Position numbers and translations under genes: made by a program | Notes under the pieces: model-generated | Database searches by the model: none | The model's input: only the letters and a program-made list of their open reading frames with translations | What the model was told of the DNA's origin: nothing | Shown here: one piece after another, positions 4,868 to 36,373 of the stretch | Numbering within the stretch: the first letter of the stretch is position 1 | How the letters are laid out: each line of letters starts with the position of its first letter | Assembly: GCA_028281345.1 (NCBI GenBank) | Contig: JANQKB010000051.1 | Location: 7,276-71,275, forward strand | Source: Chlorobium sp. | Lineage (GTDB): Bacteria > Bacteroidota > Chlorobiia > Chlorobiales > Chlorobiaceae | Length of the DNA: 64,000 nucleotides | Reading direction: 5' to 3'

Positions 4868-5845
4868 ATGAGCAACACCAAGAAGATGCAACAATTTCAG
4901 TACGACCCTAAGTATATAGTAAATTCAGCAGTTGGCAGTGAAAAAGATTTTTGCATGGGGTACCTTAACCCCAGCCCTTCAGGTAATGGTTATATTACCA
5001 CGATCAAGCTCTCCGTCGGATTAGTCAATATTCCACAGTCAGCAATAGGTGGCGTACCGTTTGACAAAGGTACGGCAGGAATCGTTTCCTATGACCGTTG
5101 CGAATGTAATGACGCCTATATCGGCGCAATCAATATGGTGACCGCATCATCCTTCAGCGGTCTGAATGGAGTAATATGGGGCTATGATCTGGCTCGTGCC
5201 GAGAACCTCCGGGATGTCCTTTTATACAAGCAGCCATGGCCTGATGGCTCGAAAACCCCTGTATACAGCATTCACCCTTTGCTTGATACAACCCAGAGAC
5301 TTTTCGGAATAGATTCCCAAAGGCGTTTTAACCCTTTACCGGGTTCCATGGTGGTTTGTGCAAATAAAAACGCCACCAACGACCCCAGTACCCAACCTTG
5401 CGGATGGGCCTGGTCTTTCATCGCCTTATCTATCCTGGAAGATCGCAACAGCGGCTCCAATCTTTTTATCGAAGACTGCGGTTTTATCGAGGGCAATCCC
5501 CCGTATAGCGAGGTAAAAAAAACCATGGATGAAACCCTGCACAAGGTCACTGAATGCGCAGTGCTCTGTGGAGTCGATCAGGACATAAAATACAAAGAAA
5601 CGTTTATCGGTTATAAGCTGGTAAAATTTGGCGATAACCAGGTAGGCTGTGCCCTTGCCTGCGCCCCTTACGTGACCCTGGCAAGGAATGCCATCACCGC
5701 CGGTAAAAACCCTTCGGACCTGACAGACATGACAATCAGCGAATGGGAACAATCGTTGGGTCTGGAACCCCTTCCTCAAATCTCCAAACTGGAGCAGGGC
5801 TTTCTCGGATCGGAAGGCTTTAACGAGCAATACGGGGTTTTGTAA
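4868..5845 (+). CDS. hdcA: Pyruvoyl-dependent histidine decarboxylase proenzyme
   Basis: SYDRCE, autocleavage site NMVTAS/SFSG, VCANK and LFIEDCG correspond to Lactobacillus HdcA Tyr62/Asp63, Ser81-Ser82, Lys155 and Glu197. AGGAGG RBS precedes the ATG at 4868. Confidence 0.85.
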   Translation: MSNTKKMQQFQYDPKYIVNSAVGSEKDFCMGYLNPSPSGNGYITTIKLSVGLVNIPQSAIGGVPFDKGTAGIVSYDRCECNDAYIGAINMVTASSFSGLNGVIWGYDLARAENLRDVLLYKQPWPDGSKTPVYSIHPLLDTTQRLFGIDSQRRFNPLPGSMVVCANKNATNDPSTQPCGWAWSFIALSILEDRNSGSNLFIEDCGFIEGNPPYSEVKKTMDETLHKVTECAVLCGVDQDIKYKETFIGYKLVKFGDNQVGCALACAPYVTLARNAITAGKNPSDLTDMTISEWEQSLGLEPLPQISKLEQGFLGSEGFNEQYGVL

Positions 5846-10931: not shown

Positions 10932-12215
10932 ATGCTTGATATCAATTATATCCGACAAAACCCGGAAGAAGTTGTCGAAATGCTGAAAAAACGGCGGCAG
11001 GAAGAGGATTGCTCCAGACTCGATGAACTGCTTGAATGCGACAGGCAGCGTCGGGAACTTGTCCGCAAAACCGACGAGTTGAAAGCATTGAGAAACAAGG
11101 TCTCAAAAGATATCGCTGTTATCAAAAGGACCGGCCAGGGCTCTGCGGAAGATCTCATTCAGGAGATGAAAGAGGTTGCCGATAATATTGCAGGTATGGA
11201 CGATACTTTGGGTGAGCTCGAAAAGGAAATAGAATCTATCCTGCTCTCTCTTCCAAACAAGTTGCACGCCGACGTTCCCGAAGGCAGTTCAGCCGAGGAC
11301 AACGCCGTTTACAAAGAACCGGTAACCTTTGATCATACGTTTGACTTCCCTTTGGTGAACCACCTTGACCTTGGCAACAGGCTCGGCATTCTTGACTTTG
11401 AACGGGGCGCAAAAATATCCGGCACCGGATTTCCAGTCTACACAGGTAAAGGTGCACGGCTTGAACGTGCGCTTTTGAACTTCATGCTGGATTACCACAC
11501 CGAACATCACGGCTACACCGAAGTTTTTCCTCCGTTCATGGTAAACGAAGATTCACTTCGGGGCACAGGTCAGTGGCCGAAGTTTGCCGATCAGGTATAC
11601 TACGTGAACGAAGACAGCCTTTATGCGATCCCGACCGCAGAAGTACCGGTAACGAACCTCCACCGTGAGGAAATGCTCCGCAACGAACAGTTACCCATAT
11701 CCTATGCCGCCTACTCCGCATGCTTCCGCCGGGAAGCCGGAAGCTACGGCAAAGATACACGCGGGTTTCTGAGGGTTCATCAGTTCAACAAGGTTGAAAT
11801 GGTAAAATTCACCCGTCCTGAAGAGTCCTATGACGCGCTCGAAGAGATACTAAAACACGCAGAAGCTATTCTTCACGCCCTCAAAATACCTTACCGGGTA
11901 ATGCTTCTCTGCAGCGGAGATATCAGCGCAAACGCTACAAAATGTTATGATATCGAGGTATGGTCACCTGCGGAAAACAAATATCTGGAAGCATCGAGCT
12001 GCTCCAACTTCGAGGATTACCAGGCACGGCGAGCCAACATCCGCTTCAAACCAGCCGGGAATTCAAAACCGTCTTACGTTCACACCCTGAACGGCTCGGG
12101 ACTTGCAACTTCCAGATTGATGGTTTCACTGCTTGAGAACTATCAGACAGCCGAAGGCACCGTTATCGTACCGGAAGTGCTGAGAAAGTATACGGGCTTC
12201 GACCTGATCGATTAA
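10932..12215 (+). CDS. serS: Serine--tRNA ligase
   Basis: [49 protein letters not shown]. Confidence 0.98.
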
Positions 12216-12429
12216 AGTTGTTTTTCTCACGAACCGGCATGTAAAATATCATCGTGCCACCGATGACTTTTACACGTTTCTACCGGAAGCACGGGACTTG
12301 GCCCAGCCTGGAAGTACCCATCAGGCATGTACGATGGTTCAAGAAGTGCTGCAAACCTTTCGCCGCCGCCTTTACACATTCCCCCCTCTTCGAAACCCGC
12401 CATGTTTTTTTTTATGTAAAACGATCTAA

Positions 12430-12573
12430 AGGGCACCGCTATAAATTGTCGCGAGCGCCTTGAGCACGAGGCGAACGGAGCGCAGAAACCGGAGTGTGCA
12501 CGTAGTACATGAGGATTTCGAGCACCGATCAACGAAGTAATCATGGTGCGCAGCAAATTAATAGAGGCGCCCT
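12430..12573 (+). repeat. ~144-bp MITE-like repeat, copy 2
   Basis: Ends agggcaccgctataaatt / aattaatagaggcgccct form inverted repeats; same core as copy 1. Confidence 0.92.
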
Positions 12574-12658
12574 AAAGTGAAACCTTTTTACGTCCCTCCG
12601 CATAGCAATAATTAAACGATGCTTTATTCAACGACAAAACTATGAGCAGGAAGAGGAC

Positions 12659-13144
12659 ATGAGCGTAAAAATGAAATCTTGGGCAACGCCACTGGCCGCC
12701 GGAACCTTCGTCATTCTTGCCGTAACCGGCATTCTGATGTTCTTTAAAATCAACATAGGGTATATCAAGCCCGTCCATGAATGGCTGAGCTGGGCAATGG
12801 TGATCGGGGTGGTTTTTCATACCATAGCCAACTGGAAACCCTTCACCTCATACTTTTCGAAAAAGCCATCCCTTTCCATTATCGGAGCAGGTTTGATTAT
12901 CACCATGCTTTCTGTTTTTATGCCGTCCGCCAACGATGGCAATCCAGGGATGAAAATGATCAAAGCACTCGGAACGGTAAAAATCGAAACCATTGCCGAC
13001 ATAGCAGGGCAAAACAGCGACGCTATCGTCACAAAGCTCGAACAAAAAGGTATTTCCGAAGCCGGGACATCCATGACCATCCGGGAGATTGCTACAATGA
13101 ACGGAAAAAAAGAGAAAGATATTCTATGGGTCATTTTCCAATAA
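12659..13144 (+). CDS. DUF4405-like membrane protein
   Basis: WATPL..GTFVILAVTGILMFF, VHEWLSW...FHTIANWKPF..YF. Confidence 0.7.
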   Translation: MSVKMKSWATPLAAGTFVILAVTGILMFFKINIGYIKPVHEWLSWAMVIGVVFHTIANWKPFTSYFSKKPSLSIIGAGLIITMLSVFMPSANDGNPGMKMIKALGTVKIETIADIAGQNSDAIVTKLEQKGISEAGTSMTIREIATMNGKKEKDILWVIFQ

Positions 13145-13171
13145 CCTCGTCTTCGGGCAAGAAAGAGACAA

Positions 13172-13201
13172 TAAAAAACGCACCTGCTATGATGCGGGTG
13201 C
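13172..13201 (-). terminator. Terminator for metX at a convergent gene junction
   Basis: gcacctgc/gcgggtgc stem with an adjacent A run (U tract on the minus strand). Confidence 0.6.
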
Positions 13202-13211
13202 TGAGGCACCT

Positions 13212-14285
13212 TTAAGCGGCTGAACTATCCTTGGCGGTTACCTCATCCCTGAACGCTTTCACCAGCCGGCTGACCTTGTCAACCTCGATCAGAAACGCGT
13301 CGTGGCCGTATGATTCGTGGAGGTACTCGATACGGCTGTCGGGAATATGCCGCACAAGCTCCTCCTGTTCCTCTTTGGGGTAGAGAATATCGGATGTGAT
13401 GGAAAGCACTTTGACCGGCATGGCAAAAGATTCAAGCACCCGGTTGTACTCCCCTCTTCCGCGCGAAAGGTCGTGGGAATCCATGGCCTTCGTAAGGGTG
13501 ATGTAGGTATTGGCGTCAAAGCGGTTGACGAGTTTCTCCCCCTGATAGCGAAGATAGCTTTCCGCCTGGAAGGTTTTTTCGTCTCTCTTGTCGCGCCCGA
13601 AACGGCCTTGAAAGTTGTCGAAACTCCGGTATGAGCACATCGCCATCATGCGGGCTGCCGCCAGACCCCTTGCCGGTTGCGCCTGAGGATCATACCATCC
13701 TTCCTTCCAGTCACGGTCAGCGATAATTGCCTGACGCTGTGCCTCGCTCTGTGCTATACACCATGCCGAATGTCTCCCGGATATGCCCATCGGCATGAGC
13801 GCGCACACCTTGTCGGGGAACATGCAGCCCCACTCCAGCACCTGCATTCCGCCAAGCGAAGCACCGACAGCCAGCTTCACCTGTTCGATACCGAGTTCAT
13901 CGAGCAACAGCCGCTGCAGCCTGACCATGTCACGTATGGTAATAGCGGGAAAGTCGGGGCCGTAACGCTTGCCTGTCAAGGGGTTTCGAGACAGAGGACC
14001 GGTCGTACCGTAACAGCTTCCCAGCACATTGCTGCAGATAATAAAATCCTTTGTATCGTCAAACCCTTTTCCTTCTCCGAACATTCCATCCCACCAGATA
14101 TCGGCATCTGCCGAGCCGGTCAGGGCGTGACAGATGAGCACAACATTGTTTCGCTCCCGGTTCAAAGACCCCCAGGTACGATACGCAATGATTGTTTCAG
14201 GCAGTTCACCTCCAAGCTCAAGGCTGAAAGGTTTACGGCTGACAAAAAATCCTGTTTTTTCTGATATGCTATCGATATACTCCAT
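13212..14285 (-). CDS. metX: Homoserine O-acyltransferase (MetX family)
   Basis: CHALTG, CSNVLGSCYGTTGP, GASLGGMQ, RFDANTY, DILYP, HESYGHDAFL. Confidence 0.95.
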   Translation of the reverse strand: MEYIDSISEKTGFFVSRKPFSLELGGELPETIIAYRTWGSLNRERNNVVLICHALTGSADADIWWDGMFGEGKGFDDTKDFIICSNVLGSCYGTTGPLSRNPLTGKRYGPDFPAITIRDMVRLQRLLLDELGIEQVKLAVGASLGGMQVLEWGCMFPDKVCALMPMGISGRHSAWCIAQSEAQRQAIIADRDWKEGWYDPQAQPARGLAAARMMAMCSYRSFDNFQGRFGRDKRDEKTFQAESYLRYQGEKLVNRFDANTYITLTKAMDSHDLSRGRGEYNRVLESFAMPVKVLSITSDILYPKEEQEELVRHIPDSRIEYLHESYGHDAFLIEVDKVSRLVKAFRDEVTAKDSSAA

Positions 14286-14325
14286 TCCCTGTTGATCGTT
14301 TTCAAAGTTTATGTTTCATTGTTCT

Positions 14326-14465
14326 TGGCACCACTATTAATTGTCGTGAGCGCCTTGAGTACAAGGCGGACGGAGCACAGAAACCGGAGTGTACACGCGG
14401 GGACATGAGGATTTCGAGCACCGGCCAACGAAGTGATCATGGCGCGCAACAAATTAATAGCGGTG

Positions 14466-14468
<3 letters not shown>
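14326..14468 (+). repeat. ~143-bp MITE-like repeat, copy 3 (between metY and metX)
   Basis: tggcaccactattaatt / aattaatagcggtgtca inverted ends. The right end includes the metY stop codon (tca at 14466-14468). Confidence 0.92.
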
Positions 14469-15809
<1,341 letters not shown>

Positions 15810-19825: not shown

Positions 19826-19852
19826 TTTTGACTTTTGAATTTTGACTTTGCC
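19826..19852 (+). repeat. Heptamer tandem array (TTTTGAC/TTTTGAA)
   Basis: ttttgac ttttgaa ttttgac tttgcc. Confidence 0.75.
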
Positions 19853-19856
19853 TGTA

Positions 19857-20771
19857 ATGCACGTTCTTGAAACACCCTACAGCGATCATTTAGAGAGCTT
19901 CGTCAACTACCTGACGCTCGAAAGGAACTTTTCTCCTCACACAAGGACATCCTATATGAATGACCTCAATCGGTATCTTCTTTTTGCACAGAACCTTGAA
20001 AAACCGGTTACCGGGATAACCCTGACCGATATACAGAGCTTCATAAAGGAGCTTCACGACGCAGGACTTGAAGCACGTTCTGTTGCCAGAAACATCTCCG
20101 CCATCCGTTCTTTTCACAAATTCCTCGTTCGAGAAAATATTCTCAAGGAAAACGCGGCTGAAAACCTTCATCAGCCGAAACCCGGCCTGCACCTGCCGAC
20201 AGTACTGTCGGTTGACGAAGTGTTCAAACTCCTCGATGCGCCTCTCCTCGAAGAACCTCCCGGCAAGTACCGGCTGAGAGACAAGGCGCTTCTGGAATTT
20301 CTCTATGCGACGGGAATACGGGTCAGCGAGCTCGTCAATCTGCAGCAAAGCAATTGCTACTTCGATGCCGGTTTCGCACGCATTTTCGGTAAAGGCTCAA
20401 AAGAGCGTCTTGTCCCTGTCGGGCGTTCCGCAACAGAATGGGTAAAACGATACCAGCAGGAACTGCGCTTGAATATAGCAAACCGCGATTCCGGGGATTA
20501 CCTTTTTCTCAATGCACGCGGAACACAACTCTCCCGAATGTCAGCTTATACGATTGTTCGCCGTTGCAGCACGACAGCGGGAATTACAAAAAAAATAAGC
20601 CCGCACACCCTCCGGCACACTTTCGCCACCCACCTGCTCGAAGGAGGAGCAGACCTCCGGGCGGTACAGGAAATGCTCGGCCACAGCTCCATTATCGCCA
20701 CACAGATCTACACCCATATCGACCGCTCCTTCATCAAGGAGGTGCATAAAACCTTCCACCCCAGAGGGTAG
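19857..20771 (+). CDS. xerD: Site-specific tyrosine recombinase XerD
   Basis: RDKALLEFLYATGIRVSEL, GKGSKERLVP, HTLRHTFATHLLEGGADLRAVQEMLGH, TQIYTH, HPR. Confidence 0.93.
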   Translation: MHVLETPYSDHLESFVNYLTLERNFSPHTRTSYMNDLNRYLLFAQNLEKPVTGITLTDIQSFIKELHDAGLEARSVARNISAIRSFHKFLVRENILKENAAENLHQPKPGLHLPTVLSVDEVFKLLDAPLLEEPPGKYRLRDKALLEFLYATGIRVSELVNLQQSNCYFDAGFARIFGKGSKERLVPVGRSATEWVKRYQQELRLNIANRDSGDYLFLNARGTQLSRMSAYTIVRRCSTTAGITKKISPHTLRHTFATHLLEGGADLRAVQEMLGHSSIIATQIYTHIDRSFIKEVHKTFHPRG

Positions 20772-29165: not shown

Positions 29166-30187
29166 TGATGTTTACCGCATGGACAACCGGTGATATTCAC
29201 GGGATCGGTCCTGAAATCATTCTGAGAAGTTTTCAGGAAATCGGCAACAGCACCTGCAGGCCGCTGGCCGTGGGTTCAGTCGAGGCACTGCGGTTTTATA
29301 ACAGGGAGCTTGATCTGGGCGTAACGATTAACGAATCCGGGTCGTTCAGGGATTTGGAAAACGTTGCTGATTTTCCGGACAACATCCTCCCGGTACTCAG
29401 TGTCGCCGAACCCACAGAGCCCATCAGCCCCGGTGTTGTCTCGACCGAAGCAGGACACATAGCCATGAAAGCCATAGAAACTGCCGCGAGGTTGTGCCTC
29501 GAAAAAAAGGTTCGCGCCATGGTAACCGCTCCTATTCAAAAAGAAGCAATAGCCAAAGCAGGGTATGCCAATACCGGGCACACCGACTTTCTTGCGGAGC
29601 TCTGTGACGTTCCCGCCCCGATAATGCTTTTCCACGATCGGGCCTCTTCCCTTACGGTTGCTCTCGCGACCATTCATGTACCGCTCCTTTCCGTACCGGG
29701 CCTGATACGCTCCATGGACCTTGAGAGCTTCCTTCTCAGGCTATCCGAATCTCTGCGAACGGATTTCCATATTGCTTCACCGCGAATAGCCGTTCTCGGT
29801 CTCAACCCTCACGCATCGGACGGCGGTGTTATCGGCACTGAAGAAGAAACGGTTCTTGCTCCCTGCTTTGAAAAACTTGCAGGAAAAGAATGCATCGAGG
29901 GACCGTTTCCCGCTGACGGGTTTTTCGGTGGCGGCATGTATCGCGAGTATAATGCTGTTGTTGCAATGTATCATGACCAGGGGCTGCTCCCTTTCAAAGT
30001 TCTGGCATTTGAAACAGGCATCAACGTCACTACCGGACTTCCCATCATACGCACCTCTCCCGGCCATGGGACGGGTTTTGACATTGCCGGAACCGGTAAT
30101 GCATCCCCGAAAAGCTTTACAGAAGCCGCTCTTCTGGCTGAAAGAATCGCGGATAACAGGGCTGAAAAGTCAAAATTCAAAAGGTAA
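29165..30187 (+). CDS. pdxA: 4-hydroxythreonine-4-phosphate dehydrogenase
   Basis: TGDIHGIGPEI, VTAPIQK, GHTDFL, LGLNPHA, GPFPAD, YHDQGL, RTSPGHGT. Confidence 0.93.
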   Translation: MMFTAWTTGDIHGIGPEIILRSFQEIGNSTCRPLAVGSVEALRFYNRELDLGVTINESGSFRDLENVADFPDNILPVLSVAEPTEPISPGVVSTEAGHIAMKAIETAARLCLEKKVRAMVTAPIQKEAIAKAGYANTGHTDFLAELCDVPAPIMLFHDRASSLTVALATIHVPLLSVPGLIRSMDLESFLLRLSESLRTDFHIASPRIAVLGLNPHASDGGVIGTEEETVLAPCFEKLAGKECIEGPFPADGFFGGGMYREYNAVVAMYHDQGLLPFKVLAFETGINVTTGLPIIRTSPGHGTGFDIAGTGNASPKSFTEAALLAERIADNRAEKSKFKR

Positions 30188-30196
30188 AAGTCAAAC
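30165..30196 (-). repeat. Heptamer tandem array (reverse orientation) overlapping the pdxA 3' end
   Basis: aaaagtc aaaattc aaaaggt aaaagtc aaac. Confidence 0.75.
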
Positions 30197-30242
30197 ATTC
30201 ACCGTGACAGCACGGTATTGTGCTGCAAATCAACAACCGGAA

Positions 30243-30938
30243 ATGATCTCATTTGTCAACGTAGATCTGGAGCTTGGGAAAAAACCTATCCTCAAGGAAG
30301 TCAATCTTGCCATTGAACCGGGCCAGCTTGTCTATATCGTGGGGAAAAGCGGAAGCGGAAAAACAACGCTTCTCAAAGCGCTGTACATGGAAATCAAACC
30401 GACAAAAGGAGAAGTTTCCATAGGGGGATATAAATCATCCTCCATCAAAAGAAGGCACATTCCTCATCTTCGCAGAAAACTGGGCATCGTGTTTCAGGAT
30501 TTCCGGCTTCTCGAAGACAGAACAGTCTTTGAAAATCTCGCATTTGTACTCAAGGTTACGAACACAAAGAACAAGCTCATAAAAGACAGGGTGATGACCG
30601 CTCTTCAGGAAGTGGGTCTTGAACACGCAGCAAAACAGATGCCCTTGAACCTTTCAGGAGGAGAACAGCAGCGCATAGCGATCGCCCGGGCACTTGTCAG
30701 GGAACCAATAGTAATCCTCGCGGATGAACCTACGGGAAACCTGGACCCGGATACTTCACTGGAAATCCTCGAATACCTCAAAAAAATCAACCACAATGGC
30801 ATTGCGGTGATCATTGCAACGCACGACTACGAACTGGCACGCCACTACCCGTCAAAAACCATGCAGATTAACGGTCAATCTCTCCAGGCAGCAACCTTTG
30901 CCGATTCACCGGCAGGATACCGGCCGGTATCCTCTTAG
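30243..30938 (+). CDS. ftsE: Cell division ABC ATPase FtsE
   Basis: GKSGSGKTT, LRRKLGIVFQDFRLL, LSGGEQQR, ADEPTGNLD. The ATG at 30243 is preferred over the track start at 29826. Confidence 0.9.
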   Translation: MISFVNVDLELGKKPILKEVNLAIEPGQLVYIVGKSGSGKTTLLKALYMEIKPTKGEVSIGGYKSSSIKRRHIPHLRRKLGIVFQDFRLLEDRTVFENLAFVLKVTNTKNKLIKDRVMTALQEVGLEHAAKQMPLNLSGGEQQRIAIARALVREPIVILADEPTGNLDPDTSLEILEYLKKINHNGIAVIIATHDYELARHYPSKTMQINGQSLQAATFADSPAGYRPVSS

Positions 30939-31053
30939 GAACAACCTGCTCTCAGAAGAGTTTTGCCATGAAGAAGTGGTTACTTGATCGGGGGCACGTC
31001 CCCAGCACCTATAAATAAATACTATATCACCCATTTCGTTGTTTCCTTCCTAT

Positions 31054-31114
31054 GCATAACGCCAGGGCTCAATCGCGACACGCCAACGGCGTCGATTGCA
31101 GCCATTTGTTATCC
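31054..31114 (-). mobile_element. Integron attC site (59-base-element type)
   Basis: Minus strand: R'' GGATAAC, AAATG, L'' GCTGCAAT, central palindrome, L' ATTGAGC, CCTGGC, R' GTTATGC. The extra G in L'' fits the extrahelical base, and the TIR gene's TAA lies in R''. Confidence 0.8.
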
Positions 31115-32518
31115 CCCGTCATCAGTCTCACCTTCCAGTTCAGTAAAAGTCCTTATTGCGTCTTCAACATCATCAAAGACCTCATTTATGTTATCCGCCG
31201 GGTCTGCATCGGAGAGAATCTTGACAGAAGCAGCCAACGCTTGCTTCTTTTGTCGAATCGCTCTGTTGATTAGAGCAAAGCCGATGCCTGCCGCACCGCC
31301 TTCTCTTTCGGGCTTTTCTTCGTCCTTGGCCATGGATGAGGTGACTTCATCCAGTTCCACCTCAAAAAGCAATTTGAGTTTCTTTGTCTTCTTCTCATCA
31401 GGGATATCGCTGTTCTTGATTTCAGCAACTTGTGAAAGGAGTTGCCTGCCAAAATTGTGTCCGCCTTCCCACAATTTGTCAATCAGACCCTTGAAAGCTT
31501 CGGCTCCCGGGCCATCGCCCATGGTTTCTTCTTCATCGGCAGTTTCCGGCCGTTCTTCTTTGATTTCACCAGTCATCAATACTGGCCCCTGCCGAACTCG
31601 CAAGATGGCGTCGACATGTTTTTGATATGTAGCAGCGAGTTCCGGCGTGATCTGCAACACTTTACCGAGGTCGTTTACAAATTGGTGAATTTGTGCTGCA
31701 GAATCCAAGCGAAGCGCGTTGAGCCCCTTTAATGGGCCGGCAAGAACAGCTGCCGAAGTGCCGGGGGCCAGCAATGGAAGAAGGTGCTTCTTGACACCCC
31801 AGCGAGCGCCTAATTCAAAGACGACATACATCGAATCGATGCTGTTAGAAGAGATCACACCAATGAATGCTTCAGAGTCATGAACTTCACCGCGAAGTTG
31901 GTCATCGGTGTCGGCACCACCAGGTAGTCGATATCCATCGATACTTGTGCAGCGGATATCCCCAGCGTTCAAGTTGAGCGCTGAGCGAATTAGATCGACA
32001 AGTGGCTCTACTATCTCGACGTCTTTCGAGCAGTGGCTCACGAATAACTTAAGCATTGTAATGGCTCCTTGATTTCCTTTCGAAATTATCCTTTCGTCAA
32101 TAAAAAGTTTTATTTCTGATAGAGTGTTGTTCATCTCATTTTCAATTTCTGGCATATACCTCTCTCGAAGCTCTGGCTTTGAAGAATGTTCACACGATTT
32201 GGTCATGTTTTCAAATATTGATCCATGAAGTTCGGTATACATTTCTGAAATTGAAGTCGTAATCCTTGAGATAGAAACTCCAGTTAGAAATACAGCTTCA
32301 TCCGACATTACTTGAAGGTTTTGTATGCATATATCTCTAAATGATTTAAAGGCATTTCTGCCGATTTCTATTTCAGCAGCTATCGTTGCTCCCGACCGTA
32401 ATATTCCTTTAGCTGCATGCATATTATGCATGGCTTTCGAATTTTCTTGAACTTTTTCCTTTAGCCTCCCCAGTTCGATTTTAAGTCGTTGAATCGTGAT
32501 GTCACATAGGTCATTCAT
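31109..32518 (-). CDS. TIR-domain protein (probable internal start at 32056) with an AT-rich N-terminal extension
   Basis: LFVSHCSKD...AFIGVISSNSIDSMYVVFELGARWG TIR signature with the catalytic-type Glu. AAGGAG RBS lies 8 nt before the ATG at 32056. Confidence 0.85.
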   Translation of the reverse strand: MNDLCDITIQRLKIELGRLKEKVQENSKAMHNMHAAKGILRSGATIAAEIEIGRNAFKSFRDICIQNLQVMSDEAVFLTGVSISRITTSISEMYTELHGSIFENMTKSCEHSSKPELRERYMPEIENEMNNTLSEIKLFIDERIISKGNQGAITMLKLFVSHCSKDVEIVEPLVDLIRSALNLNAGDIRCTSIDGYRLPGGADTDDQLRGEVHDSEAFIGVISSNSIDSMYVVFELGARWGVKKHLLPLLAPGTSAAVLAGPLKGLNALRLDSAAQIHQFVNDLGKVLQITPELAATYQKHVDAILRVRQGPVLMTGEIKEERPETADEEETMGDGPGAEAFKGLIDKLWEGGHNFGRQLLSQVAEIKNSDIPDEKKTKKLKLLFEVELDEVTSSMAKDEEKPEREGGAAGIGFALINRAIRQKKQALAASVKILSDADPADNINEVFDDVEDAIRTFTELEGETDDGG

Positions 32519-32635
32519 TAGAAAATATTGATTGTTCGCCCAAGATTATTTTATTATCTGCGCTGTAGATTTTCCCAAGAATTTTTAAAAATTACCACAA
32601 TCTTGCTTTACGCTCAAACAAACGTCTGAATTTAA

Positions 32636-32737
32636 TGCCCGTAACAGCATACTATACTATTAGCATACCTATGCGACTAGCGAAAAGCCATGAGGACTGG
32701 TAGGTTACAGGCAAGAGATGCTGTAACGTTATGGGCA
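32636..32737 (-). repeat. attC-like imperfect palindrome upstream of the TIR gene
   Basis: Outer arms TGCCCATAAC / GTTACGGGCA (9/10 complementary) with inner AGCAT/ATGCT. Confidence 0.4.
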
Positions 32738-32763
32738 TATCTATTAGACGTATCGGGGAGACG

Positions 32764-32792
32764 AAAAAAAGCCCTGCTCTCTGTGCAGGGCT
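32764..32792 (-). terminator. Terminator downstream of nrdJ
   Basis: agccctgc/gcagggct stem with an A7 run. Confidence 0.75.
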
Positions 32793-32884
32793 CTTCACTT
32801 TGTTCAAAAGTCCGAATCTCGGCGGAATGTATCCAGGTAGCCACATTCAGAAACTCAACGGCAGGATACCCGGCCGGTGTCTTC

Positions 32885-35800
32885 TTAAGAACAGCCGGTC
32901 GTCATTCCGCAATCCTCGCAAACCTTGCAGGTTCCGTTCTGGCGGACTCTCATTGAACCACAGTTTTCACACTGCTCGCCGGAGTACCCCTGAACCTTTG
33001 CCTGTATAACCTGGGTATCAACAACTCCCGGCTGCTCTTTTTCTGCAAGTGACTTCGGCGCCTTACGATGTTGTCCGGCAGCGGCGGGAACCTCTGAAAC
33101 CCCGGAACCGCGGGCGGCGGTACCGTTCGATAGCCCGTCCTCACCTTCCGATTCATCATCTTCCGAAGAGATTTCATCAACCGCCTTGATATGAATGAAG
33201 TCTTTTCTGCCGAGATAATCGTAGCCGATGGAGCGAAAGACATAATCAAGAATCGATGTTGCATTTTTGATCACGCTATGTCCCTGAACCATTCCTGCCG
33301 GTTCAAATCTGGTGAAAGTAAAGCTGTCAACCAGTTCCTCAAGCGGCATGCCGTACTGAAGCGCCTTGGATGCAAGTACGGCAAAACAGTTAAGAAGACC
33401 TTTAAATGATGCCCCCTCCTTGTACATGTCGATAAATATCTCACCGAGAGAACCATCCTCATACTCGCCTGTCCTCAAAAAAACCTTGTGCGCACCGACA
33501 TATGCTTCACGGATATAGCCTTTCCTGCGTTTTGGCAGCATACGGCGTTCCGAACGGTGATAGATTCTCTCGACAATCCGTTCCTGCAGTTCTTTAGGGC
33601 CCTTGGTCTCGTCGAGGTCCTCCTCTGTTCCGAGCATAATCACTTCATCGAGGTCATCATAACTGTTGATATTGAGCGGCTGGGAAAGTTTTGATCCGTC
33701 CCGGTAGATGGTAATGGCCTTGATCATATGCTGCCATGCCGAGAAATAAACTTCCGCTATTTCCTGGTTCGTAGCCGTCGCAGGCATATTGACGGTCTTT
33801 GATATCGCTCCTGAAATAAAGGGTTGAACAGCCGACATCATCCGTACATGTGCCATATGGTTGATATAACGAAGCCCTTTACTGCCGCATTTTCCGGCAC
33901 AGTCGAATACCGGGAGATGCTCCAGCTTCAGATGGGGCGCACCCTCAACGGTCATGGTGCCGCAAACATAGTCATTCGCCGCTTCATAGTCGTCCGGGGC
34001 AGCTCCTAAAGCCTCGAGCATGTTGAAGTTCTGGTCCTTGAGCTGTTCCTCCGTAAAACCGAGGGCTTCACAGAAATCCTCTCCAAGAATCCACTTGTTG
34101 AACGCAAAGCGGATATCAAAAACATTTTCAAGCTGGGCCTCGACAGCCTCGACTTTATCCTCGGTGAACCCTTTGTTTTTGAGCCACTGGCGATTGATCG
34201 TCGGGCACCCGGACAATGTGCCGTGGCCTTTGCAATATTTCTCGATATCCTCTATCTGCTTGGGACTATAGCCAAGGCGTTCGAGGGCCTTGTGAACCGA
34301 CTGGTTGACAATCTTGAAATAGCCGCCGCCGGCAAGCTTTTTAAACTTGACAATTGCGAACTCGGGTTCGACACCTGTCGTATCGCAGTCCATGACCAAT
34401 CCGATGGTACCTGTTGGTGCAATAACGCTGACCTGGGCGTTTCTGTAACCATGTTTTTCCCCCATATCGAGCGCCTCGTCCCAGACCTTTCCGGCAGCTT
34501 CGAACAGATAGGTCGGACAGTATTCCGAATCTATCCCGCGGGGCCTGACTGTAAGTCCTTCATAATCTTCTTCCGACATGTTGTGCGCCGCCCTGCGATG
34601 ATTTTTTATTACCCTCAGCATTTCTCCGGCATTCTCCTCATAACGGGTGAAAGGCCCCAGATCCTTTGCCAGCTCCGCCGATGCCTTGTACGATTCACCG
34701 GTTATCAAGGCGGATATCGCTCCGGCAATCGCCAGCGCCTTTGGTGAATCATAGGGAATTCCCATGATCATGAGAATCGTACCAAGGTTCGCAAATCCGA
34801 GACCGAGTGTTCGGAATTCATAGCTGAGACGTGCAATTTCCCTTGAAGGGAAATGGGCCATCAGCACCGAAATTTCCAGAACTACCGTCCAGAGCCGTGC
34901 TGCATGAAGCAAATCGTCAACTTTTATCGCCCCCTGCTTTTCATCAAGAAAGCGCCCGAGATTCAGACTGGCAAGGTTACATGCGGAATCATCAAGGAAC
35001 ATGTACTCCGAACAGGGGTTGCTGGCATTGATACGGCCGCTTTTCGAACAGGTGTGCCAGTCATTGATCGTTGTATCGAACTGCAAACCGGGATCGGCGC
35101 ACTTCCAGGCACTCATCACGATCTTATCCCAAAGGTCACGGGCTCTGACCGAGCGTGCATGTCTGCCTGTTGTCCGCTCTTTCAGCTCCCACAGTTCATC
35201 ATTTTCAACAGCTTTCATGAACGCATTGGTGACCCTGACGGTATTGTTCGAGTTTTGACCGGACACCGTCTGATACGCTTCCGATTCATAATGAGTGTTG
35301 TACTCATCGAAGTCGAGCGATGTAAACCCCTGATCCACAAGCGAAAGTACCCTGACGATGTAATTCATCGGAACACCACGACCAACAGCGTTTTTGATCA
35401 GAATGTTCAGCTTTTCATTCTGGTGCCGGTCACTGCCGTTGTCAACAGCCTCATCGACAATTGCCTTGAGAAACCTCGAGCAGACTCTGGAGCCCGATAC
35501 CAGTGACGCCACCTTGTCTTCCTCCCTGGCTTTCCACTCTATAAACTTTTCTACATCGGGATGGTCGATATCGACAATGACCATTTTCGCAGCTCTCCGG
35601 GTTGTACCTCCGGATTTTATAGCTCCTGCGGCGGAATCAAAAATCTTGAGGAAACTCATCAGACCGGAAGAGCTTCCCCCTCCACTGAGCTTCTCCCCTG
35701 ACGAACGAAGGTTTGAAAAGTTGGTGCCGGAACCGCTGCCGAACTTGAATACCCTCGCCTCTCGTACGGCAAGATCAAAAATCCCGCCATCGTTTACCAG

Positions 35801-36373
35801 GTCATCCTTGACCGATTGGATAAAACATGCATGTGCCTGAGGCCTTGAATAGGCGTCTTTCGACTCCTTCGTTTCACCACTCTTGCTGTCAACATAAAAG
35901 TGGCCCTGTGCCGGACCCTCTATGCCGTACGCATACTTGAGGCCTGTATTGAACCACTGTGGCGAATTGGGGGCACCCATCTGACTGACCAGCATATAGG
36001 CAACCTCGTCATAAAAAGCCTGGGCATCCTCCTTGGTATCGAAGTAGCCATGTTTTTCTCCCCACTCTTTCCAGCAGCCGACAAGGCGGTGAACAACCTG
36101 CTTGATCGAATGCTCACTACCGGTCACAGGCTGCCCTTTCTCATCCAGCATGACATTACCCTTCTCATCCCGCTGTGGCACCCCTGTTTTTCTGAAATAC
36201 TTTTGCGCGAGAATATCAGCGGCAACCTGGGACCACTCTTTCGGCACTTCTACATCATTCATTTCAAATACCTTCGATCCATCGGGGTTTCGAAGTACCG
36301 ATGAACGCATCGTGTACTCGAACATATCGTAAACATTGCGGCCTTTCGTGGTAAAACGGCGGGAAATCTTCAT
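32885..36373 (-). CDS. nrdJ: Class II (B12-dependent) ribonucleotide reductase
   Basis: PNSPQWFNTG, ACFI, GSGSGTNFS, GGTTRRAAKM, ASNPCSEYMF, CNLAS, APTGTIG, ITIYRDGSK and a C-terminal CxxC...CxxC zinc ribbon. Confidence 0.96.
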   Translation of the reverse strand: MKISRRFTTKGRNVYDMFEYTMRSSVLRNPDGSKVFEMNDVEVPKEWSQVAADILAQKYFRKTGVPQRDEKGNVMLDEKGQPVTGSEHSIKQVVHRLVGCWKEWGEKHGYFDTKEDAQAFYDEVAYMLVSQMGAPNSPQWFNTGLKYAYGIEGPAQGHFYVDSKSGETKESKDAYSRPQAHACFIQSVKDDLVNDGGIFDLAVREARVFKFGSGSGTNFSNLRSSGEKLSGGGSSSGLMSFLKIFDSAAGAIKSGGTTRRAAKMVIVDIDHPDVEKFIEWKAREEDKVASLVSGSRVCSRFLKAIVDEAVDNGSDRHQNEKLNILIKNAVGRGVPMNYIVRVLSLVDQGFTSLDFDEYNTHYESEAYQTVSGQNSNNTVRVTNAFMKAVENDELWELKERTTGRHARSVRARDLWDKIVMSAWKCADPGLQFDTTINDWHTCSKSGRINASNPCSEYMFLDDSACNLASLNLGRFLDEKQGAIKVDDLLHAARLWTVVLEISVLMAHFPSREIARLSYEFRTLGLGFANLGTILMIMGIPYDSPKALAIAGAISALITGESYKASAELAKDLGPFTRYEENAGEMLRVIKNHRRAAHNMSEEDYEGLTVRPRGIDSEYCPTYLFEAAGKVWDEALDMGEKHGYRNAQVSVIAPTGTIGLVMDCDTTGVEPEFAIVKFKKLAGGGYFKIVNQSVHKALERLGYSPKQIEDIEKYCKGHGTLSGCPTINRQWLKNKGFTEDKVEAVEAQLENVFDIRFAFNKWILGEDFCEALGFTEEQLKDQNFNMLEALGAAPDDYEAANDYVCGTMTVEGAPHLKLEHLPVFDCAGKCGSKGLRYINHMAHVRMMSAVQPFISGAISKTVNMPATATNQEIAEVYFSAWQHMIKAITIYRDGSKLSQPLNINSYDDLDEVIMLGTEEDLDETKGPKELQERIVERIYHRSERRMLPKRRKGYIREAYVGAHKVFLRTGEYEDGSLGEIFIDMYKEGASFKGLLNCFAVLASKALQYGMPLEELVDSFTFTRFEPAGMVQGHSVIKNATSILDYVFRSIGYDYLGRKDFIHIKAVDEISSEDDESEGEDGLSNGTAARGSGVSEVPAAAGQHRKAPKSLAEKEQPGVVDTQVIQAKVQGYSGEQCENCGSMRVRQNGTCKVCEDCGMTTGCS

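Follow-up and report, generated by a model that had tools for sequence, protein, structure and literature searches.

A Likely Single Integron Cassette Encoding an SpbK-like TIR Protein at the nrdJ–ftsE Junction of a Marine Green Sulfur Bacterium

A 64,000-nucleotide stretch of DNA from a marine, coral-associated green sulfur bacterium of the family Chlorobiaceae (Chlorobium sp., contig JANQKB010000051.1; the whole stretch is referred to below as the window) carries, between the core genes nrdJ and ftsE, a gene for a TIR-domain protein that ends in a site with the anatomy of an attC, the recombination site of integron cassettes. This unit is likely to be an integron cassette that encodes a TIR effector resembling the defense protein SpbK. 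It consists of a single open reading frame (ORF), which lacks its own promoter, and of a canonical attC of 61 bp, the start of which falls inside the stop codon. The original prediction had described a stranded cassette of the CALIN type (a group of clustered attC sites that lack an integron integrase). The absence of an integrase was upheld, but with only one attC the element is a SALIN (single attC site lacking an integron integrase), the one-cassette form of a CALIN.

The attC occupies positions 31054–31114 on the minus strand and was delineated from its sequence, its fold, an anatomy scan, a covariance-model score, and an alignment that included class 1 and metagenomic attCs. In the minus-strand direction, from 31114 to 31054, its sequence is GGATAAC-AAATG-GCTGCAAT-CGACGCCGTTGGCGTGTCGCG-ATTGAGC-CCTGGC-GTTATGC. 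The R'' box, GGATAAC (31108–31114), contains the TAA stop (31109–31111) of the 469-residue ORF, and the R' box, GTTATGC, spans 31054–31060, with the crossover predicted between G31060 and T31059. These core boxes are complementary at six of seven positions. Inside them, set off by spacers of 5 nucleotides (nt) on the R'' side (AAATG) and 6 nt on the R' side (CCTGGC), lie L'' (GCTGCAAT, with a bulged G) and L' (ATTGAGC), separated by an imperfect central stem; the L pair, GCT[G]CAAT/ATTGAGC, is matched at 7/7 positions with one extrahelical base. On the top strand this base is G, as in the attCs of cmlA1, VIM-2, IMP-1, and estX, the aadA type having C. Both strands form a hairpin in which the R boxes are paired, the 5/6-nt loop is unpaired, and a bulged L helix is capped by a short terminal stem. 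The fold of the bottom strand has an energy of −14.1 kcal/mol (z = −3.5), which none of 200 shuffled sequences equaled. The length of 61 bp is within the range of attCs (57–141 bp), and the site lies directly 3' of the ORF in the orientation of the ORF. No T-run follows the hairpin in the sequence, which indicates that it is not an intrinsic terminator.

A strict anatomy scan was run that required the AAC/GTT triplets, R boxes matched at 6/7 positions or better, L boxes matched at 7/7 with a bulge (8/7), two spacers fixed at 5 and 6 nt, and a length of 50–150. The scanner was calibrated on class 1 integron arrays from plasmids, and bona fide class 1 attCs, aadA1 among them, pass it. A version with an additional central-stem criterion lost most true attCs together with the candidate, and this criterion was dropped. 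The site behind the TIR gene was the sole match in the window, against an expectation per 64 kb of 0.03 from Markov simulations and 0.05 from 1.33 Mb of related Chlorobi DNA. A covariance model, R1, was built with canonical pairing from 10 class 1 attCs out of those harvested from six plasmid integrons; the training sites were ungapped and their centers trimmed, a full-length MAFFT alignment having misaligned the 3' halves. R1 scored the site at 27.8 bits (E value 3.2e-5) over the full model, with coordinates exactly 31054–31114 (−). The runner-up in the window reached 11.6 bits (E = 1), 16 bits lower, and with filters off no second attC was found in the whole window, every other match having an E value of 1 or more. 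Such filters-off runs missed 88–89-nt sites in two related loci (L005 and L050, see below) that the default run found, probably owing to a hit-length limit, and absence from them was not read as evidence. R1 stands here as a proxy for the attC_4 model of IntegronFinder and is conservative. A held-out estX attC scored 20 bits and the long, held-out dfrA1 and IMP-1 attCs went unreported, whereas attCs of the training type score 42–61 bits, above the site in the window. An Rfam scan of 30000–34000 with E values up to 1 gave no match; Rfam appears to hold no attC family. The anatomy claimed in the original prediction, and the covariance-model check it had proposed, were thus borne out by the sequence, the fold, the unique match in the strict scan, and the R1 score.

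Hairpins behind stop codons are common, and this is a lone site without an integrase, with imperfect cores, that was picked after the fact. It could, therefore, be a chance or terminator-type hairpin whose likeness to an attC is coincidental. This is very improbable, because the T-run is missing, so strict an anatomy is expected only 0.03–0.05 times in 64 kb, and the R1 score stands 16 bits clear of the other sites in the window. Nor does coincidence account for attCs in the same position and orientation beside genes of the same family on many unrelated contigs, or for attC arrays at the same locus in other Chlorobiaceae, both of which are described below. The segment 31054–31114 is very probably a genuine attC.

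Independent evidence for a cassette comes from the homologs of the TIR gene. The TIR core (residues 155–310) is 50%–70% identical to hundreds of metagenomic proteins, whose N- and C-terminal extensions vary. Applied to 80 metagenomic loci with TIR homologs, R1 reported 32 sites (E values up to 1) at 14 of the 80 loci, all on the strand of the gene. They either have their start within a range from 5 nt ahead of the TIR stop to 85 nt beyond it or terminate immediately ahead of the ORF. One homolog (P0006, contig L094) has attCs on both flanks and shares its array with genes for PycTM, DUF4365, and Piwi-domain proteins. Judged from these sequences, the TIR family travels as integron cassettes, and the attCs beside homologous genes indicate that the pairing of gene and attC in the window is not coincidental but marks a cassette.

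The chromosomal setting leads to a similar view. The unit is flanked upstream by nrdJ, encoding a class II ribonucleotide reductase (32885–36373, minus strand; identified from its ORF and the related loci), and downstream by the convergent ftsE, encoding a cell-division ABC ATPase (30243–30938, plus strand; identified by translation and by tblastn in the related loci). Eighty related loci, from Chlorobiaceae and a few outgroups, were fetched around the C terminus of nrdJ. None of them encodes the TIR protein, and no part of 30947–32540 matches any of them. The TIR gene is accessory. Vertical inheritance of the gene at the ftsE–nrdJ position, which would have counted against the original prediction, was rejected, since the gene is absent from all 80 loci. 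The stop-to-stop gap between nrdJ and ftsE is 3–160 bp in many of these loci (3–15 bp in relatives with an empty site), and in about fifteen it holds 0.6–9 kb of unrelated, variable DNA. When R1 was run on the 80 loci (1.33 Mb), all other matches of 27.8 bits or more fell 0.5–2 kb downstream of nrdJ and on the nrdJ strand, so that attCs are found at the nrdJ locus of three other Chlorobiaceae. In L050, two sites (12297–12348 and 13212–13299) and weaker ones after the next two ORFs form an array of at least four cassettes (span 12297–15028), the cargo of which is defense-like (DUF4145, HNH [HNH_2], and AbiJ_NTD4). In L005, the attC (11865–11953, within a cassette region of 11865–12889) accompanies cargo for a TIR plus deoxyribosyltransferase-like protein. 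In L054, a TIR gene fragment lies behind the attC (12733–12793). As had been predicted, the window contains no intI: a tblastn search with IntI1 gave no IntI homolog in the window or the related loci, and the sole match in the window was an XerD-like ORF of 309 residues (19842–20771), 10 kb from the element.

Comparison with these relatives also sets the limits of the cassette, which is inferred to span 1484 bp (31060–32543, minus strand), from a 5' end that reads TTGGGC to the G of the R' box at its 3' end. The left edge, 32543/32544, is where homology with L004, L005, L008, and L009 stops, and the right edge is the crossover point in R'. Position 32737, the left edge in the original prediction, is consequently not a cassette boundary. 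A next cassette had also been suspected at the ATG at 31034; this opens only an unsupported ORF of 42 codons (30909–31034), which enters a duplicated nrdJ/ftsE junction antisense to the 3' end of ftsE, and no second attC accompanies it.

Between the left edge and nrdJ lies a conserved, non-coding platform (32544–32825, minus strand) that comprises the nrdJ terminator (a hairpin at about 32764–32793), some 170 conserved bp, a promoter-like module, and the junction with the cassette. Over 345 bp past nrdJ (32540–32884), the identity to L004 and L009 is about 80%. The platform was also considered as a long attC or an RNA; both were ruled out, since its fold is not significant (z = −1.1) and neither the R1 nor the Rfam searches matched it. 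The absence of a significant fold is as expected of a double-stranded, attI-type site. A search of the JGI metagenome collection with the platform pattern gave 0 matches.

The promoter-like module (32587–32618, minus strand; TTTG-N20-TAATTTTT; read from 32618 to 32587, TTTGAGCGTAAAGCAAGATTGTGGTAATTTTT) lies 69 nt upstream of the ATG. This 32-nt element (TTTG-N20-TAAnTTTT) is present in six copies in five genomes, each before a different cargo; the other copies are in L004 (6126–6157), L005 (15643–15674), L008 (11629–11660), and L009 (11714–11745 and 15233–15264). Promoters of the Bacteroidota/Chlorobi type have TTTG at −33 and TAnnTTTG at −7, and the module can be read as a promoter of this −33/−7 type, which a sigma-70 scan does not cover. 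About 45 nt downstream of the module follows a junction of the form AATAAT-G/TT, where the slash marks the point of crossover. In the window, this attI-like junction is AATAAT-C/TTGGGC (32538–32550, minus strand; from the alignment and a listing of junctions). The relatives have AATAAT-G/TTGGAT, G/TTAGAT, G/TTGCAA, and TATG/TTCGGC, and the second copy in L009 has G/AT, GATAGAG. The junction base is thus G in five of six platform copies, with G/TT in four. In all copies the sequence is kept to the left of G/TT and is unrelated to the right of it, and breakpoints placed exactly at G/TT are what marks an integron crossover point. Behind the platform, attC-bearing cassettes are found in the window and in L005, where the junction is followed by a 58-nt mini-attC without an ORF and then by further cassettes, and weakly in L008; none was detected after the platform in L009. 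By its sequence, the platform looks like a promoter plus attI without an integrase. Cassettes thus recur at this locus, which has a conserved, promoter-like module and a G/TT junction and is not a random landing place.

Within this lineage or in a donor, an integron integrase supplied in trans would have joined the attC, as a folded bottom strand, to the G/TT site by recombination. The chance that the cassette was inserted at G/TT in this way is put at slightly better than even. At present the cassette is probably immobile, since the junction base is C and the window contains no integrase. The same C is found in all metagenome copies examined (contigs X1–X3 and the TARA scaffold L084), and a change from G to C at this position would be expected to block excision.

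Several observations weigh against the cassette interpretation. The R' box departs from GTTRRRY at one position (6/7 fit) and R'' from RYYYAAC at two (5/7 fit), the locus has a single attC, and the authors of IntegronFinder drop lone attC sites by default as possible false positives (PMC4889954, PMC9024848). R1 was self-built from 10 class 1 sites with trimmed centers and a short calibration, and its E values are rough. The junction in the window is CTT, not GTT, and the closest homolog with the same C-terminal domain (P0002, L081–L083) has no recognizable attC after its stop. Finally, an imperfect direct repeat of about 70 bp surrounds the insert, a product that insertion by IntI does not make.

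This repeat brackets the entire 1.95-kb insert, its two copies being 73%–85% identical and spaced by 1949–1950. Copy 1 (30877–30946) holds the functional last ~20 codons of ftsE and a pseudo-copy of the last nrdJ codons, while copy 2 (32826–32896) holds a pseudo-copy of the ftsE tail and the functional end of nrdJ, with its last codons and stop. In the repeat, the ancestral junction at which nrdJ and ftsE met tail to tail is duplicated. As it goes beyond what IntI insertion produces, a second mechanism has probably shaped the locus, either the exchange of a block or an integration of the Campbell type at this junction. Between the attC and copy 1 lies a stretch of 113 bp (30947–31059, minus strand) that, compared with all fetched loci, is similar only to L084, which represents the same locus; it represents either the target's original right half or what is left of another cassette.

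The repeat raises the question of whether the attC and cassette, although real, moved as part of a larger block consisting of the platform, the cassette, the 113-bp stretch, and the repeat. Homologous recombination between strains across the conserved flanks could have transferred such a 1.95-kb unit, as could integration and excision of a Campbell-type circle at the nrdJ/ftsE junction, in which case the unit would be a cis-mobilizable element served by an undescribed recombinase. Besides the flanking repeat, a metagenome (X4) provides a contig that joins 32858 back to 30910, 1949 back, the joint to be expected if the 1949-bp unit formed a circle or tandem copies. In this metagenome, the platform (32700–32867) and the post-attC stretch (30936–31019) have 2–4 times the depth of the TIR gene, and in L009 the platform is present twice. 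The joint, however, is one 131-nt assembler contig (depth 17.9) from a mixed community, and the unit has no recombinase gene. Movement as a block also predicts neither breakpoints exactly at G/TT nor the attC cassettes after the platform in L005. It is considered possible, though doubtful, and is compatible with insertion by an integrase, as one event does not preclude the other.

The window sequence is also present in coral and marine metagenomes, the scaffold L084 having 99.5% identity. In L084, a one-base insertion at window position 31506, within the acidic linker of the protein, splits the TIR ORF into products of 346 and 142 residues; the frameshift could be natural or an assembly error. 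In the coral metagenomes X1–X3, a 45-nt piece of the 113-bp stretch (30957–31001, four mismatches) is also found on a separate contig of about 2.2 kb with similar depth, and this piece is repeated elsewhere in the genome or the community.

The cassette ORF (31109–32518, minus strand) encodes an SpbK-like TIR protein of 469 residues, as judged by Pfam, PADLOC, PDB, AlphaFold2, and Foldseek. The AlphaFold2 model (pLDDT 80) begins with a four-helix bundle (residues 2–150, about 32069–32515; helices 2–37, 42–74, 80–109, and 115–150), which leads into the TIR domain (residues 154–310, 31589–32059; the fold is seen at 155–310 and Pfam TIR_2 matches at 159–272). A disordered acidic linker (residues 314–335) and a second four-helix bundle (residues 339–459, 31142–31504) complete the chain. 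The minus strand encodes all of these domains. In PADLOC, the family that matches best is spbK (E value 2e-16, residues 82–255 aligned), the sole sequence match in the PDB is SpbK (9phb; E value 2.6e-8), and the best Foldseek match of the full model is the TIR domain of SpbK (TM score 0.73). Foldseek with the full model returned TIR domains only, neither helical bundle being matched, and the NCBIfam search with the protein gave no family.

The FELG glutamate on which the original prediction had remarked is E235 (codon 31814–31816), and it aligns with the catalytic E192 of SpbK. The segment F234-E235-L236-G237-A238-R239-W240 corresponds to N-E-M-G-A-T-W in SpbK, where N191 is replaced by F in the present protein; E235, G237, and W240 are invariant across 53 homologs. 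In SpbK, mutagenesis has shown that N191, E192, G194, and W197 are needed for NADase activity and defense, the products of the enzyme include N1-cADPR (a form of cyclic ADP-ribose) as well as ADPR (ADP-ribose), and SpbK alone suffices for defense (PMC12847820). By analogy, the cassette would, on balance, encode an NAD-depleting abortive-infection defense of the SpbK type, an assignment made with modest confidence.

The protein might instead be a generator of signals similar to ThsB, with a partner encoded elsewhere, or have a role outside defense. PADLOC does report weaker ThsB matches (best E value 5e-7), SpbK itself yields N1-cADPR in addition to ADPR, and the C-terminal domain is without known function. 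Such a role is nevertheless unlikely. No gene for ThsA or a similar effector is found in or beside the cassette, the best family, sequence, and structure matches all point to SpbK, which is self-sufficient in defense, and integron cassettes generally carry compact, self-sufficient functions.

For an SpbK-type protein, the following course may be envisaged. The promoter of the platform would drive expression of the cassette, and a phage protein would be bound by the four helices of the N-terminal bundle, which would so serve as a sensor. Clustering of the sensors would allow the TIR domains to assemble into an active oligomer, in which E235 would catalyze the cleavage of NAD+ and stop the infected cell. 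We infer the promoter use, the NADase activity, and the anti-phage function, as we do the act of integration.

The C-terminal bundle appears to be unusual. Pfam has no family for it, and only four true relatives (P0002, P0121, P0122, and P0124) were found in 1.84 billion representative proteins. Three of the four are recognizably joined to TIR domains, one of them of a different TIR lineage, and the fourth (P0122) is a protein of 177 residues without a Pfam domain. The bundle carries the motif GIGxALINRAVRxKxQAL, and we would guess that it is regulatory or acts as a second sensor. The GC content is 35%–39% in the region coding for the N-terminal bundle and in the platform (window positions 32000–32600) and about 50% elsewhere, and the closest relative, P0002, begins at the equivalent of M154, that is, without the N-terminal bundle. 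The low GC content of the N-terminal part and the start of P0002 suggest that the domains have probably been shuffled. The original prediction of a standalone TIR protein with a novel C-terminal domain is accordingly right in that the domain is without a family and very rare, but it overlooked the N-terminal four-helix bundle and the resemblance to SpbK. At the P0002 locus L081, an 88-nt, near-perfect hairpin with two bulges (5610–5697; z = −6.9; GAATAAT...GTTATTC) is present after the gene; 18 nt of the loop recur directly past the hairpin, and R1 does not call it an attC. A degenerate attC-like site is found at 2687–2746 of the same contig.

Some further features of the related nrdJ loci were recorded. 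A MITE-like repeat (miniature inverted-repeat transposable element), CTG(C/T)TGCGCGG(T/C)TCGATTGC...GGGCGGTGCTCGAAATCCTCA..., occupies the first ~100 nt past the nrdJ stop in L002, L003, L005, L009, L030, L036, and L038. Genes or fragments of IS200-like transposases associated with repetitive extragenic palindromes (RAYT) are found in L009 (17012–17971, and a partial one at 14899–15124) and in L054 (about 13030–13393), and a site that consists of the core only, ATCTAACAAGTTGTTAGGC, is present in L054 at 12199–12217 (region 12199–12794). The nrdJ product has 1521–1527 residues in L050 (6755–11338) and L054 (6755–11320) compared with 1162 in the window, and the extra ~360 residues are intein-like (CVTAETLV...VHNCSEY).

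Taken further, the nrdJ–ftsE region of several Chlorobiaceae may be a fixed landing pad without an integrase, composed of the promoter and AATAAT-G/TT, that is loaded in trans and serves as an expression slot for defense genes. The integrase would be encoded elsewhere or on transient mobile elements, the 1.95-kb unit may circularize or form tandems, and the C-terminal bundle would be a new module with a regulatory or sensing role. This proposal is tentative and we regard it as speculative in its entirety. Less expected are that a promoter-bearing junction is reused with no integrase close by and that the SpbK-like TIR family is so frequent in cassettes. With these findings, the link between integron cassettes and anti-phage defense comes to include green sulfur bacteria, along with TIR enzymes that resemble SpbK. 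As about one-sixth of the sampled metagenomic loci of the TIR family lie in an attC array, these genes are compact and convenient candidates for defense screens. The reused promoter and G/TT junction past nrdJ offers a testable case of cassette capture and expression outside complete integrons, and the C-terminal bundle is a tractable entry to the regulation of TIR proteins.

Among known recombination sites, the attCs of class 1 integrons are the nearest counterpart, with that of cmlA1 the closest, followed by that of VIM-2. They have the same order of elements (R''-5 nt-L''[8]-stem-L'[7]-6 nt-R') and the AAC/GTT triplets, the same position of the L'' bulge with G as the bulged base, and likewise start at the stop codon. 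Their length is 60–72 bp, compared with 61 bp for the site in the window, and cmlA1 and class 1 attCs share the strings AACAAATnGCTGCA and TGAGCnCnGGCGTTA with it. The differences are that R'' (GGATAAC) and R' (GTTATGC) in the window are off-consensus and that the host is a green sulfur bacterium.

As in SALINs and CALINs (Cury 2016; Neron 2022; Loot 2023, preprint), an attC cassette lies on the chromosome with no intI nearby. The threshold for a CALIN (at least two attCs within 4 kb, no intI) is missed by the window, which has one attC. A second difference is the point of insertion, which is a conserved, promoter-bearing junction reused in several relatives and no arbitrary GWT site. SALINs have been attributed to the IntI-mediated insertion of cassettes into genomic sites, outside a complete integron (10.1101/2022.09.11.507474), and integrons and CALINs are documented in Chlorobi (PMC4889954, PMC9024848). 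A complete integron would have intI beside attI and the cassettes, and no intI is present within the 64-kb window.

Defense systems in integron cassettes were reported in 2024–2025 (Darracq et al., 2024, preprint; Kieffer et al., 2025, preprint). The present cassette is likewise a compact, single-gene candidate, whereas theirs belong to sedentary integrons of the Vibrio type and to clinical mobile integrons; a text search of the preprint by Darracq et al. (2024) gave no mention of TIR, SpbK, or Chlorobi. The ThsB protein of Thoeris systems has a TIR_2-type domain with a catalytic glutamate, as does the protein described here, but the cassette has no ThsA partner, the neighboring genes are nrdJ and ftsE, and the ThsB profiles match less well than spbK.

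The closest functional parallel is SpbK of Bacillus subtilis ICEBs1, an abortive-infection protein active against SPbeta (PDB: 9phb), in which an N-terminal four-helix bundle is followed by a TIR domain as in the cassette protein. Both proteins keep the motifs FISHSSKD and N/F-E-x-G-A-x-W, in which E235, G237, and W240 are equivalent to E192, G194, and W197 of SpbK. The identity in the TIR domain is about 21%. The N-terminal bundle has 150 residues compared with 94 in SpbK, and the acidic linker and C-terminal four-helix bundle are additions to the SpbK architecture. The carriers also differ: SpbK resides on an integrative and conjugative element, the protein described here on an integron cassette.

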